Assembly (NCBI GenBank): GCA_964444425.1
Contig: CAYUHK010000006.1
Location: 5,424 to 69,423, forward strand
Direction: 5' to 3'
Length of the DNA: 64,000 bases
Source of the DNA: an uncultured Verrucomicrobiota bacterium
GTDB taxonomy: Bacteria; Verrucomicrobiota; Kiritimatiellia; JAAZAB01
Shown here: piece by piece, positions 19,580-26,830 of the stretch
Numbering within the stretch: position 1 is the stretch's first letter
How the letters are laid out: each line of letters starts with the position of its first letter
Program-made: the position numbers and the translations under genes
The notes under the pieces: generated by a model
What the model was told of the DNA's origin: nothing
The model's input: the letters and a program-made list of their open reading frames with translations, nothing else
Database searches by the model: none

Positions 19580-19708
19580 CCAATCCAGCGGTTTTGATTC
19601 GCTGGCTCTACGGTTCTATCGTAAAAGTATATTCGCCGGCACTCTGAACCATTGTGTTGGCCGCGGTAAAACAACCATAACCTTGTTTAGATTGGAGCTG
19701 AGGCTGAA

Positions 19709-20661
19709 ATGAAGCTTATAATTCAGATTCCATCGTACAATGAAGAGCGCGTTCTTGCGGCCACTCTGGCAGCTTTGCCACGCCAGGTGCCGGGCTTCAC
19801 ATCTGTTGAATGGCTGATCGTGGATGACGGCAGTTCAGACCGCACGGTTGAAATAGCGCACGCTCAGGGTGTAGACCATATCATCAGTCATCCCCAAAAC
19901 CTTGGGTTGGGCGCGGCGTTTGCTACTGGATTAAACGCATGTCTGGCGCGCGGTGCCGATGTCATTCTCAATACCGATGCCGATAACCAGTACAATGCAG
20001 ACGATATTCCTTTATTGACTCAGCCAATTCTTGAAGCCCGGGCAGATATGGTTATAGGCACGCGGCCAATAACCAGCATAGCGCATTTTTCATTGCTTAA
20101 AAAAATACTCCAAAAAACAGGCAGCGCTATTGTTCAATTCATGACCGGCATTGAAGTTAAGGATGCCGTAAGCGGCTTCAGGGCTTTCAGCCGCCAAGCG
20201 GCCATGCGCACGTATTTTCAAAATACAGTTATGCGCTAGAAACCATTATTCAGGCGCGCCCTAAAAATATCATTATTGCCTGGGTCCCCATTCGCACTAA
20301 CCCGATAACAAGACCTTCGCGCTTGATCAAATCCATGCCGAATTATATTTGGCGGTCAGCCTGCATCATCCTTCGCGTATTGGCAGTGTATCGGCCGTTC
20401 CGCTTCTTCTGCATAATCAGCGCGCTGCTGGGCGTCTCTGGCTTAATGATTTGTGTGCGTTTTTTATGGCTTTTTGCTCATGGCCAGGGCACCGGCCACA
20501 TTCAATCTCTGGTCCTGGCTGCTATTCTTCTGGGGATTGGTTTCCAGACCTTGATGATGGCCTTTTTGGCTGAAATGTTCCGCCTAAATCGTCAATTACT
20601 GGAGGATATTCAATTCCGCTTGAATAAAAATTCATTGGATGCTGCGCGCGCAAAACCCTAA
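19709..20661 (+). pseudogene. GT2 glycosyltransferase (ArnC/DPM1/GtrB-like) with an apparent frameshift near 20205-20235 that splits the catalytic domain from its C-terminal TM region
   Basis: ORF 19709..20239 carries the GT2 DxD region (VDDGSSD...NTDADNQY). The downstream conserved segment YSYALETIIQA...IAWVPIRTNP...RPSRLIKSM is readable only in the frame of ORF 20323..20661. Confidence 0.5.
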
Positions 20662-20770
20662 AGAGCATTCATCCGTGAATGAGGGAGTATAAGCAGCTGT
20701 CTGCCCGGCCTGTGGCTTTCGCAATCCGCCAGATTATATCTGTGGGGAAACCCTTATGCTATTTTAAGCC

Positions 20771-23854: not shown

Positions 23855-24118
23855 CCTTTTGCCTGCCGGCTCTTTATCTATTTGGTTTTTATGCGATGTT
23901 TTCGCATCATCTTATGCGATACAGCTATCCTATAATACCAGTGCTGGTGATAATTTTTATGCTGACCATGAATCATTTCCTTACTTTGCGTCAGCGAGTG
24001 GAGCCACAGAATGTGCGCATGGAGAATTAAAGAGTTATCCATAGACATTCATCATCGCAGTTAAGATCAGGATCGAATGGAAGGAAAACCGATAAGACAT
24101 CACGGAAGTGTTTAGAAA

Positions 24119-26638
24119 ATGACAAGCAGTTTCTTATGTCTTAAATCGGTATGGTGGCAAATCGTTTATTTAGCCCAATTGCTGCTCTTATCATTTGGGT
24201 TAGGCTCCTTGACCCTGCATTTGCCGCGTTTATTGCTGGTTCCGCGCTTTCCGCGCTTTGCCATTGGGTTTTGTATTGTGCCTTTTGTGATAGCCTTGTG
24301 GATGTTGGCAATGCTGCTTATAGCGCCGGGCGCTTCACGCTGGTGGTTTCTGCTTCCACCGCAAATAATCGCCCTTGCTCTTGGGCTTTATTATGGAAAA
24401 GGCGCGCTGGTTCGCTTCCGCCGCTTTATAAAATATAGCTGGCGCCAGAGGAGGCGTATATGGCCTATCTTTGTGGCCTATGTTTGCGCGTTACTGATAA
24501 TTGGCAAGCTTTGCAGCATTCTGGTTGTCAATGGCTCAACGCCGATTTTCTCAACCGATGCTCTGCGTTACTTGGGCTATTCCTTAAAGCTCGCGCAGCA
24601 TAGATCCGCTTCCGCCATCACAGGCTATCAAAGCTCCGAAAATGGCGATGCTTTTGGTGATATGCATGGACCTGCCTGGCATGCTTATTTAAGCCATGCC
24701 TTGATGAATAATGGGCGCCATCCACCAGGATATCCGCACGATCAGGCTATTGGGGTTGCCTTTCAAATAACAATAATCTATATGTTGATTGCCGTGGCAG
24801 CCCTGGCCGCTGTATCAGGTTCTCAAGGAACAGGGGCGTTGGCCTTGCTGCTGCTACTATTTGTTCCTCAATGTGAGTATATTTCCACTGCCTCTTCACG
24901 CGATGGCTTCAGGGTAATTCCGATTGTTTTGTTGGCTGCTCTCCTGTCCGGCATGTCTGCGCAAAGAATGCGCAGACGCTTCCATCTTGCACCCTTGCTG
25001 CCGCTTGCGTTGATGGCAGGTTTTGCCTTGATCGGCCATTCGCTCGGTCTGGCTGTTTCTGTATCTATCGGCATTGCCTGGGCCATTTGGGCGTTTGCAG
25101 AAAAGGCGTCCTGGAAACATGTGTTGAGTGTTGGGATAGCTATAATGGCAGGATTGACGCTGGCAGGTCCGCAGTATTTTGCCGCATTTCTGGAAATACG
25201 CTCTCTGCCGGAGCCGGATGTTTTCCAAAAAATAGCACTTGCCGGCACCCCCATGTTAGAACACTGGAACGCATGGATGACATCGCGCTTACAAGGCGCT
25301 GATAGTATTTTTCAACGCCTACAAGCTTTGCTCGCGCGCGATCATTATCGCTTGAGCGTCCTGGGCGTATTGTTTGGTTTGGCCGCAACAGCGCTCTGGC
25401 CGGTTCTAAGAAAGCGTCGTCAATCTTCCATTATCAGTCTGCTGGGGTTGATTACGCTGATAACCGCCCTGCCTTTTACGGGCTTGCTTAATATTGGTTT
25501 TGATTTATCCGCGTGGTTTATAAGAAATAAGCGTTATGCAATGCAGTGGTATCCTTTTGCGGCAGTCTGTGTTGTCATGCTGTTGATTGATGTTTTTAAC
25601 CGTATAACGCTTGCTGGCGGCCGGCGGCGCCGGCTGACAACTCAAGTTGTTTTTTGCCTTGTCATCTTGATGGCTTTTTCCACCAGCAGAGCTGTTATTG
25701 CCACACAATGGCGCGTAAATCGAAATGTTGAGATGTCTTCGGCTTGGCAAAGAATCCGACAGATAGTTACAGCCCAGCAACAATTATCGCCTGGCAAAAA
25801 AATGCTGCTGGATAGCAAAAGCTACAATTACTATCTCAACAATCAGGCTATTGTAATGTATACGCCAATCACATACCCGGTGCTTCACGCAAAAGATGAG
25901 CACGCGGTAATGCAAGCGCTGCAGTTGCTGAATATAGGTGCAGTATATTTAGACATGGCGCCTTATACCGGCTATTGGAAAGACACGCCTTTATATAGTT
26001 TCCTTAGCAATCTTGAAAAGGCCAGACCAATATCGGTTGGCAGTCCTTACCTATTAAAAGATGAATGGGATAAAAACTATAAAGTAATTGATCGGATAGT
26101 TTTCCCTATAACTGGCCCGCAACAGCCTGCTTCTTGTGCCATGCTGGTTAAAAACGGACCGCTAACATGCGGCTGGTTCAATCAGGGTTGGCGTGGAGAA
26201 ATAACCCTCCAAGCCTGTGGAGAGCAAACCAATATCCTCTGCCTAGAGGCCGGCAGACCAGGCCCTGATGTTGGCGAAAGCTGTCGGCATGTGCTTTTTC
26301 TGCGGCCTGACCTGACTGGATCAGATAGCCTGCCTGTTGTTAGCGGCAGTAAAATAGTGGAGTTGATTTGCGAGTTACGCTCTACAATATCAGACAAACC
26401 TGGGATATTGTTGTTGCGCTTTGATGCCATGACTGCTACTGGCCGGCAATACAGAGTATCAACCCAAGCAGTGAGCAATCTTAAGGAAAACTGGGAGCGC
26501 TTTGTTTTGCCTATGATTATTGAGGATGATCTCTCGGCCATAACTCCTTTTTTTGTATGGTATCCTGAAGTTGAAGGCGCTACTCTTAATATCCGCGCGC
26601 CCTGCCTGCAATGGGTGGGCTTGCGAGAGGCCCAATAG
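24119..26638 (+). CDS. GT-C-like (ArnT/PMT-like) polytopic membrane glycosyltransferase candidate with a large C-terminal soluble domain (839 aa)
   Basis: At least 12 predicted TM helices; first-loop motif TDALRYLGY reminiscent of the DExRY motif of ArnT and PMT; about 330-aa C-terminal non-membrane domain. Confidence 0.5.
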   Translation: MTSSFLCLKSVWWQIVYLAQLLLLSFGLGSLTLHLPRLLLVPRFPRFAIGFCIVPFVIALWMLAMLLIAPGASRWWFLLPPQIIALALGLYYGKGALVRFRRFIKYSWRQRRRIWPIFVAYVCALLIIGKLCSILVVNGSTPIFSTDALRYLGYSLKLAQHRSASAITGYQSSENGDAFGDMHGPAWHAYLSHALMNNGRHPPGYPHDQAIGVAFQITIIYMLIAVAALAAVSGSQGTGALALLLLLFVPQCEYISTASSRDGFRVIPIVLLAALLSGMSAQRMRRRFHLAPLLPLALMAGFALIGHSLGLAVSVSIGIAWAIWAFAEKASWKHVLSVGIAIMAGLTLAGPQYFAAFLEIRSLPEPDVFQKIALAGTPMLEHWNAWMTSRLQGADSIFQRLQALLARDHYRLSVLGVLFGLAATALWPVLRKRRQSSIISLLGLITLITALPFTGLLNIGFDLSAWFIRNKRYAMQWYPFAAVCVVMLLIDVFNRITLAGGRRRRLTTQVVFCLVILMAFSTSRAVIATQWRVNRNVEMSSAWQRIRQIVTAQQQLSPGKKMLLDSKSYNYYLNNQAIVMYTPITYPVLHAKDEHAVMQALQLLNIGAVYLDMAPYTGYWKDTPLYSFLSNLEKARPISVGSPYLLKDEWDKNYKVIDRIVFPITGPQQPASCAMLVKNGPLTCGWFNQGWRGEITLQACGEQTNILCLEAGRPGPDVGESCRHVLFLRPDLTGSDSLPVVSGSKIVELICELRSTISDKPGILLLRFDAMTATGRQYRVSTQAVSNLKENWERFVLPMIIEDDLSAITPFFVWYPEVEGATLNIRAPCLQWVGLREAQ

Positions 26639-26830
26639 CTGTGGGATCAAGGCAGAATAACTTAAAATGGCTATCAAAATATATCCCCGGCATGTTGGCC
26701 ATGTTTCTATAGAGCAATTGCTTATTAACCGGCAGCTCGGTCTCGCCTATATTAATAGGGTTGTTTCCAAACCCCTGGATAATCCGGCGCCGGCTCAGCC
26801 GCCGCCGCGTCGGAGGAAAAGCGCCGCCAG

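Follow-up and report, generated by a model that had tools for sequence, protein, structure and literature searches.

Decay of a putative periplasmic glycan-modification module, with parallel knock-outs of its GT2 gene, in an uncultured Verrucomicrobiota bacterium

Introduction

Bacteria can modify a glycan after it has left the cytoplasm. In the O-antigen glucosylation of Shigella, Salmonella, and E. coli, carried out by the three-component periplasmic systems encoded by gtrABC (PMC11127046), a family 2 glycosyltransferase (GT2) with C-terminal membrane helices, which produces a polyprenyl-phosphate sugar, is encoded next to a glycosyltransferase of the GT-C fold (GT-C), and the sugar is passed to a Wzx/Wzy-made glycan by an add-on located in or near the main glycan locus. 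Here, we describe a block of five genes with a predicted organization of this kind in a 64,000-nucleotide stretch of DNA (the window) from an uncultured Verrucomicrobiota bacterium of the class Kiritimatiellia that lives in biogas digesters (contig CAYUHK010000006.1). The block has a low GC content, three of its genes are broken, and the GT2 gene has been knocked out several times in near-identical strains.

The consequences of breaking such pathways have been studied in laboratory mutants. In B. subtilis, lipoteichoic acid is decorated with N-acetylglucosamine (GlcNAc) by a GT2, the undecaprenyl phosphate (UndP)-sugar synthase CsbB, and a GT-C ligase, YfhO (with GtcA). The deletion of yfhO, or the overexpression of csbB without yfhO, traps UndP-GlcNAc, turns on SigM, and causes bulging (PMC11081497). 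The disruption of gtrS, gtrA, or arnT is expected to sequester the carrier, while that of gtrB or arnC is not, and many late-step mutants are known to select suppressors in the initiating enzyme (reviewed in PMC12826051). The suppressors in wecA (enterobacterial common antigen), tagO/tarO (teichoic acid), and cps2E (pneumococcal capsule) follow this course, a late defect being followed by the loss of the committing enzyme (PMC12826051).

The block fits the three-component scheme, as it encodes a GT2 and a GT-C; a 324-residue membrane protein is a candidate for the flippase. It differs from gtrABC in that this protein, from an unannotated family, stands in the place of the small GtrA-type flippase, in that the set also comprises a methyltransferase and another large membrane protein (839 residues), in that its GT-C belongs to an unannotated family with an insertion resembling a carbohydrate-binding module (CBM), and in that there is no prophage context. 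The resemblance to CsbB-YfhO includes the trapping of the carrier and the envelope stress that follow GT-C loss while the GT2 is active, and the same is proposed below for strains bearing a deletion in the GT-C gene; that system, however, is Gram-positive, uses another acceptor, and shows its toxicity upon laboratory overexpression, whereas here a natural knock-out pattern is read from sequences. Compared with ArnC-ArnT, which adds aminoarabinose to lipid A, the GT2 of the block scores 34 bits against the ArnC equivalog cut-off of 529, and arnA, arnB, and arnD are missing from the block, which is located in a Wzx/Wzy glycan locus and not in an operon for lipid A modification. The wecA, tagO/tarO, and cps2E cases concern pyrophosphate-linked intermediates in laboratory mutants, unlike the monophosphate-linked single sugar predicted here in wild metagenomes.

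A similar gene cluster occurs in a Methylotenera metagenome-assembled genome (MAG; GCA_028688575.1), which groups a GT2 (62% identical), a methyltransferase, a membrane protein of 297 residues (29% identical to the 324-residue protein, E value of 5e-24), and GT-C homologs of approximately 500 residues (E values of 2e-21 and 8e-11). In contrast to our block, all of its genes are intact and arranged in another order, its GT-C homologs lack a β-sandwich of approximately 200 residues, and it includes an acyltransferase but no member of the 839-residue family. We regard the block as a new, decaying case of a known type of system, the added interest of which lies in natural, ordered, and parallel knock-outs.

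Results

Three genes of the block are true pseudogenes

An initial annotation, based on the window sequence, had pointed to three disrupted genes in the block and had proposed either a decaying or phase-variable portion of a glycan locus or homopolymer sequencing errors. We compared the window with related contigs found by exact-protein look-ups and assembled independently from other metagenome runs (SRR8925793, SRR8925817, SRR8925820, SRR8925823, SRR8925755, SRR27197510, SRR27710307, and SRR31966183), which are 99.3 to 100% identical to it over the locus. The SRR89257xx-89258xx series consists of PCR-free Illumina HiSeq X10 (2x150) digestate metagenomes from full-scale Chinese biogas plants, with SRR8925817, SRR8925820, SRR8925823, and SRR8925755 inside the listed accession ranges (PMC7842101), and SRR8925793 comes from a pig-manure digester in Yangzhou (PMC13644194). 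Each assembly provides one consensus allele, and allele counts are given as contigs. A scan of Joint Genome Institute (JGI) metagenomes with a 41-nucleotide GT2 pattern gave no match.

All three genes are indeed disrupted, albeit by lesions of other types than those guessed. The S-adenosylmethionine (SAM)-dependent methyltransferase gene is broken into fragments by a frameshift and an in-frame TAA codon, both of which are identical in the six related contigs covering the gene (6/6). The gene starting at 22493, which codes for the GT-C, had been thought to continue in another frame after 23854. A 1-nucleotide frameshift is ruled out here by the intact 714-residue allele of contig L006, which reveals instead a 463-bp deletion between two copies of a 13-bp direct repeat; approximately residues 500 to 653 are removed, and the truncated 501-residue product is found on 9 contigs. 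In the GT2 gene, the frame breaks within the proposed interval (20205 to 20235), at 20209/20210, but the cause is the absence of 4 bp (TTAA) compared to five related contigs, and the T/A runs near 20215 play no part in it. Restoring TTAA yields the 318-residue open frame present in two contigs, L006 and L007 (forms P0126 and P0127). The window's 176-residue GT2 fragment was not on record in an exact look-up, and the TTAA deletion is seen on the window contig only. Thus, intact versions do exist in related strains for the GT2 (L006 and L007) and for the 714-residue protein (L006), while the methyltransferase gene is broken in every copy.

These comparisons leave hardly any room for sequencing or assembly errors mimicking frameshifts in intact genes. 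T and A runs do lie near two of the junctions; however, the same lesions appear in independent Illumina assemblies of several samples, one of them is a nonsense codon and another a 463-bp deletion, and no lesion of the window is a change in homopolymer length. For the lesions of the methyltransferase and GT-C genes, which recur identically in the PCR-free Illumina assemblies, errors are refuted; the TTAA deletion is the one found on a single contig. We are almost certain that the lesions are real, and the methyltransferase, GT-C, and GT2 genes are true pseudogenes in the window. No frame breaks were found in the other annotated window genes (encoding RmuC, MutL, SerRS, TilS, MscL, NrdR, RibBA, TyrRS, S1, ABC transporters, and others), indicating that the disruptions are specific to the low-GC block (Table 1).

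At position 23832, the surviving repeat carries the C of the left copy in the window, L001, L002, and L004 and the G of the right copy in L007. This suggests either that the 463-bp deletion happened twice between the same 13-bp repeats or that a later substitution hit the sole site at which the two copies differ.

Table 1. Features of the low-GC block and lesions of its genes (window positions)
Feature	Position	Strand	Description	Occurrence
Low-GC block; putative five-gene periplasmic glycan-modification module	19580..26830	+	Between wbpA-like gene and wzx; delimited by composition and gene content	
GT2 pseudogene	19709..20661	+	Intact form 318 aa, GtrB/ArnC/DPMS/AglJ type (predicted); TTAA deletion between 20209 and 20210	
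GT2 allele, GCCGG tandem duplication	unit 19789..19793	+	37 + 281 aa	4 contigs; SRR8925820
GT2 allele, A7>A6	tract 20099..20105	+	144 + 174 aa	4 contigs; SRR8925793, SRR8925817
GT2 allele, TTAA deletion	20209/20210		176 + 108 aa as catalogued	1 contig (window)
324-aa polytopic membrane protein gene, intact	20771..21745	+	GT2 partner conserved in neighborhood	
SAM-methyltransferase pseudogene	21758..22268	+	Frameshift at ~21885-21893 (TAG 21890-21892) and in-frame TAA 21939-21941	
GT-C-fold glycosyltransferase pseudogene	22493..24030	+	Intact form 714 aa as called, 666 aa from MKKHW start; 463-bp deletion	
Deletion junction	23829..23841	+	Surviving copy of 13-bp direct repeat CTG[C/G]CGGCGGCAA flanking the 463-bp segment in the intact allele	
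839-aa polytopic membrane protein gene, intact	24119..26638	+	C-terminal β-rich domain	

The GT2 gene was lost repeatedly after the GT-C deletion

The lesions were acquired in a definite order: those of the methyltransferase gene came first, the GT-C deletion second, and recent, independent GT2 knock-outs last. Contig L006 has an open GT2 gene and an intact 714-residue GT-C gene, contig L007 has an open GT2 gene together with the 463-bp deletion, and every GT2 knock-out lies on the deletion background. Three knock-out alleles are found, each bearing a single lesion. The strains differ from the window by approximately 7 substitutions over 22 kb, yet they carry different GT2 lesions. L001 and L002 share two derived single-nucleotide polymorphisms (17616 and 17649) but differ in their GT2 lesions, which places the separate origins of these lesions on terminal branches; five substitutions are private to the window lineage.

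Even the open GT2 alleles carry substitutions at conserved positions. T177A (site 20233) is shared by the window and the L007 lineage, while 59 of 59 relatives have a threonine at this position, and L006 carries S172L (site 20219), where relatives have N, S, or T. The open frame of L007 may therefore already be weakened by T177A.

In approximately 22.5 kb of alignments among near-identical strains, the sole indels are three, and all of them fall within the 957-bp GT2 gene. The chance of such a distribution is 7.7e-5 across the locus and, by our own arithmetic, approximately 0.002 within the 7.25-kb block and approximately 0.01 among the block genes that are still open. New frameshifts are found neither in the already-dead genes nor in the 324- and 839-residue protein genes. 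Since the three indels are confined to the GT2 gene and always occur on the deletion background, we infer that its loss was probably selected.

Another explanation would be neutral decay, in which the module died with the methyltransferase or GT-C lesions and the GT2 hits reflect chance or local mutability. Constraint is indeed relaxed, with 10 synonymous and 8 nonsynonymous substitutions in the block compared to 18 and 1 in the adjacent wbp genes; together with the lesions reproduced in independent Illumina assemblies, this bears out the proposal of a decaying portion of a glycan locus. Neutrality would also account for the replacement of residues that are otherwise conserved or invariant (GT2, T177A and S172L; 839-residue protein, W620R), and two of the three GT2 lesions are of the slippage type, one being a homopolymer change and the other a tandem duplication. 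What it accommodates poorly is three independent frameshifts in one 957-bp gene against a background of approximately 7 substitutions over 22 kb, with none in the dead genes, in the 324- and 839-residue protein genes, or elsewhere. The equivalent A7 tracts of the block are also unchanged: those of the 324- and 839-residue protein genes are invariant among strains, unlike the A7 tract of the GT2 gene. Neutral decay certainly contributes, but it leaves the concentration of indels in the GT2 gene unexplained, and we consider it unlikely as the account of the whole pattern. The tracts of the two membrane protein genes lie in the same 17-nucleotide sequence, CTGGCAAAAAAATGCTG, present at 20849-20865 and at 25791-25807, respectively.

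Phase variation, the other possibility raised initially, would make the GT2 a contingency gene subject to slipped-strand mispairing at the A7 tract and the GCCGG unit. Gtr-type operons are phase variable in Salmonella, through a methylation-dependent mechanism, and both A7>A6 and the 5-bp tandem duplication are slippage-type changes that are in principle revertible. However, a contingency locus changes by the length of one tract, while here three lesions lie at three sites and only one of them alters a homopolymer, which is short (7 nucleotides). In the window, 4 bp were lost outside any repeat, a change for which no reversion path is evident, and one consensus allele is seen per assembly. Moreover, the two other genes are irreversibly broken, by the 463-bp deletion and by a nonsense codon among other changes, so that reactivation of the GT2 would still leave the pathway incomplete. 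Phase variation is thus poorly supported, and we judge it very improbable.

Predicted functions of the module proteins

The GT2 catalytic domain matches Pfam Glycos_transf_2 (1.8e-25) and is followed by membrane helices, as in polyprenyl-phosphate sugar synthases. The best NCBIfam matches are AglJ (2e-27), PpgS (2e-25), dolichyl-phosphate hexose transferase, PgfS, and ArnC, all below the equivalog cut-offs, with near-full-length alignments for AglJ and ArnC; matches in the PDB include DPMS (5mlz, 3e-12) and ArnC (8vxh and 9bhc). The intact gene is thus predicted to encode a polyprenyl-phosphate sugar synthase. Its family is very large, with relatives of approximately 60% identity in MAGs of several bacterial lineages.

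The intact 714-residue protein has the fold of a GT-C and is encoded alongside the GT2; it belongs to an unannotated family of approximately 790 representatives. A CBM-like β-sandwich (approximately 200 residues) is inserted in its first periplasmic loop. The alignment of 40 sequences shows an invariant R119-x-P121 and an almost invariant D83, the latter within the motif D-A-x-x-Y...A-Y-N-L. This conserved acidic residue, located just past the first membrane helix, in the first extracytoplasmic loop, may be catalytic. The protein itself has no Pfam match, including to the PMT_2/PMT models, while 22 of 40 aligned relatives match PMT_2 at an E value of ≤0.01 (best, 1.5e-7). The protein thus appears to be related to the PMT_2/ArnT-like family rather than a demonstrated member of it, and it falls outside every curated GT-C family. 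A PMT-family GT-C adjoins another homolog of the GT2. L006 and the window differ by five substitutions within 15 nucleotides (22435-22449) ahead of the GT-C start at 22493, in the putative leader or ribosome-binding region.

Once repaired, the methyltransferase aligns colinearly with Methyltransf_23 (residues 9-139 versus profile positions 11-150; 36.6 bits for a cut-off of 27), with a degenerate SAM-binding motif I (IACDSG instead of GxGxG). Between its frameshift and its TAA codon, at 21899-21932, five strain substitutions fall within 34 nucleotides and are all synonymous in the methyltransferase frame. The whole pseudogene has 6 synonymous and 2 nonsynonymous substitutions, which is odd for lesions that predate the divergence of the strains; the cluster may represent a recombination patch or residual constraint.

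The 324-residue membrane protein has no match in Pfam, NCBIfam, or the PDB, and its 297-residue Methylotenera homolog shows only a faint, colinear match to LPG_synthase_TM (E value of 0.4). Neither a GtrA-like nor a MATE gene was found in the block. Based on its conserved neighborhood, the protein is a candidate flippase for the lipid-linked sugar.

The 839-residue protein belongs to a rare family, for which only four other homolog clusters were found, with variable C-terminal domains; one homolog adjoins a 316-residue GT2 and a 499-residue membrane protein. A motif in its N-terminal loop (TDALRYLGY) is similar to SDALHYLAY in the GT-C. The AlphaFold2 model, built from 5 sequences, is poor (predicted local distance difference test score of 44.8), and comparison of the two families with hhalign gave a probability of 26%; on these grounds, the protein was not called a GT-C. 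Possibly, it acts as a second transferase and draws on the lipid-linked donor of the GT-C. In sample SRR31966183, the sole difference from the window over 6,948 bp is 25976 T>A (position 75 of contig L100), which replaces W620 by R in this protein; W620 is invariant in the five-member family alignment.

Composition and surroundings of the block

The drop in GC content reported for this region is real. GC is 0.481 in the block (19580-26830) against 0.561 upstream (1-19579) and 0.565 at 39248-64000, with 0.547 for the whole window; the 60-mers average 0.480 inside the block and 0.555 elsewhere (Mann-Whitney, p=2e-19); and, of all 7.1-kb segments in the 64 kb, the one starting at 19601 has the lowest GC. 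The lowest 60-mer of the block, at 22261, has 26.7% GC. The baseline of 62 to 68% given initially was overstated, as only 21% of the outside 60-mers reach 62% and the segment 14281-14340, quoted at 68%, measures 63%. GC at third codon positions (GC3) ranges from 0.43 to 0.53 in the block genes, compared to 0.58 to 0.71 in housekeeping genes. Since wzx, a membrane protein gene directly downstream (26831-28132), has a host-like GC3 of 0.62, the drop is not merely an effect of membrane protein amino acid composition. A second, milder low-GC block lies at 28155-37294 (GC3 of 0.45 to 0.55), so that the locus looks mosaic, with wzx standing between two blocks of lower GC.

The proposed horizontal acquisition is plausible from GC and GC3, by which the block is compositionally foreign. 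In the window, a search around the block revealed no tRNA, Rfam match, integrase or transposase, or significant flanking repeat, which speaks against a mobile element as the explanation. Block sequence is present in every related contig that reaches the region, the wzx-anchored contigs having the 839-residue protein gene directly upstream. It is absent from 80 of 80 wbpA-anchored loci of other species, all of them distant (≤73% WbpA identity).

Upstream of the block lie sugar-nucleotide genes resembling wbpB, wbpD, wbpE, and wbpA. Downstream are wzx, a weak Wzy-like gene, two GT4 genes, a GNAT gene, a PglC-like initiating transferase, a DegT gene, and a PglF-like dehydratase. With these flanks, the block lies in a Wzx/Wzy-dependent glycan locus. 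Also in this locus, a 774-residue open reading frame (34970-37294) is without a match in Pfam or NCBIfam. The strong T-richness of the coding strand (AT skew down to approximately -0.45 in 300-nucleotide windows) suggests that it encodes a further large polytopic membrane protein, e.g., a ligase, polymerase, or transferase.

Two other genes of the window deserve mention. The gene at 44920-48204, on the minus strand, encodes a 1094-residue protein with two metallo-β-lactamase-fold regions and an FG-GAP repeat, the sole member of its own 90% cluster. The 688-residue protein encoded at 52447-54513 has no family match and shares its 90% cluster with four 682-residue variants from other contigs, indicating a length polymorphism among strains.

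Discussion

Our analysis describes a glycan-modification module that appears to be in the course of being dismantled, and we propose a mechanism for the order of its losses. The GT2 would load a sugar onto the polyprenyl-phosphate carrier, the 324-residue membrane protein would probably move the lipid-linked sugar across the membrane, and the GT-C, possibly along with the 839-residue protein, would attach the sugar to the Wzx/Wzy-made glycan outside the cytoplasmic membrane. The methyltransferase would once have been part of this module. Its lesions, found in every known copy, would represent the first step of the decay, followed by the repeat-mediated 463-bp deletion that kills the GT-C and, very recently, by several independent GT2 knock-outs in near-identical strains. 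With its consumer gone, the GT2 would go on using up undecaprenyl phosphate, which is scarce, for a sugar-lipid that leads nowhere, and its inactivation would lift this burden. A decaying Gtr/ArnC-ArnT-like module in which GT2 knock-outs were selected through relief of the carrier lipid is, taken as a whole, the explanation that we favor, although with a confidence that stays a little short of even. For carrier trapping as such, as the cause of the GT2 loss, our support is slightly more tentative.

Several points weigh against this explanation. In L007, the GT2 has stayed open in the presence of the deletion, indicating that the burden, if any, is tolerable, with the caveat of the T177A substitution of this allele. 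The 839-residue protein is intact, and should it draw on this donor as well, the sugar-lipid made by the GT2 would be no dead end. Constraint is relaxed over the whole block, so some of the decay is neutral. Allele counts are small, with three knock-out events (n=3). Finally, sugar-phosphate-lipid synthases of this type catalyze reversible reactions, which could limit trapping.

The intact 839-residue protein is also central to a close rival, namely, selection to shed the decoration itself as an escape from phages or grazers. In this view, both the 714- and the 839-residue protein would transfer a sugar from one common donor and, after the loss of the GT-C, the decoration that was left would have been shed through inactivation of the GT2 or through damage to the 839-residue protein. 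Surface glycan modules are classic phage targets, and digesters are rich in phages. Phage communities have been studied in digestate runs belonging to this accession series (PMC13644194). The parallel GT2 hits point to selection under this hypothesis as well, and in SRR31966183, where the GT2 is still open, the sole difference from the window in 6.9 kb is W620R in the 839-residue protein, which fits two routes to one phenotype. On the other hand, if the loss of either gene had the same effect, more hits would be expected in the 839-residue protein gene (2520 bp), but the three truncating events are all in the 957-bp GT2 gene (p of approximately 0.02). Furthermore, this protein is a putative transferase, and L007 and L100 are separate contigs that perhaps come from different strains. 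We consider the shedding of the decoration possible but less likely than the relief of the carrier lipid.

Whichever force acted on the GT2, what had been an ambiguity between frameshifts and sequencing errors becomes a documented gene loss in progress, for which the order of events is resolved. For annotation, the three genes should be treated as true pseudogenes, and the surface glycan of this strain should be assumed to be without this decoration. Based on sequence comparisons, a fold and a likely role can be proposed for two unannotated families of membrane proteins, the GT-C family and its 324-residue partner.

The locus also offers a natural test of whether carrier trapping, known from laboratory mutants, shapes genomes in the field. 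It is conceivable, though rather doubtful, that wild digester populations of one bacterium repeatedly lost a carrier-charging GT2 following the loss of its GT-C, which would make this the first natural, metagenome-visible case of suppression at the committing step. If this is true, the economy of the carrier lipid would be a real selective force outside the laboratory, and, if it is also general, ordered parallel knock-outs in strain-resolved metagenomes could serve to pair GT2s with GT-Cs in uncharacterized pathways.

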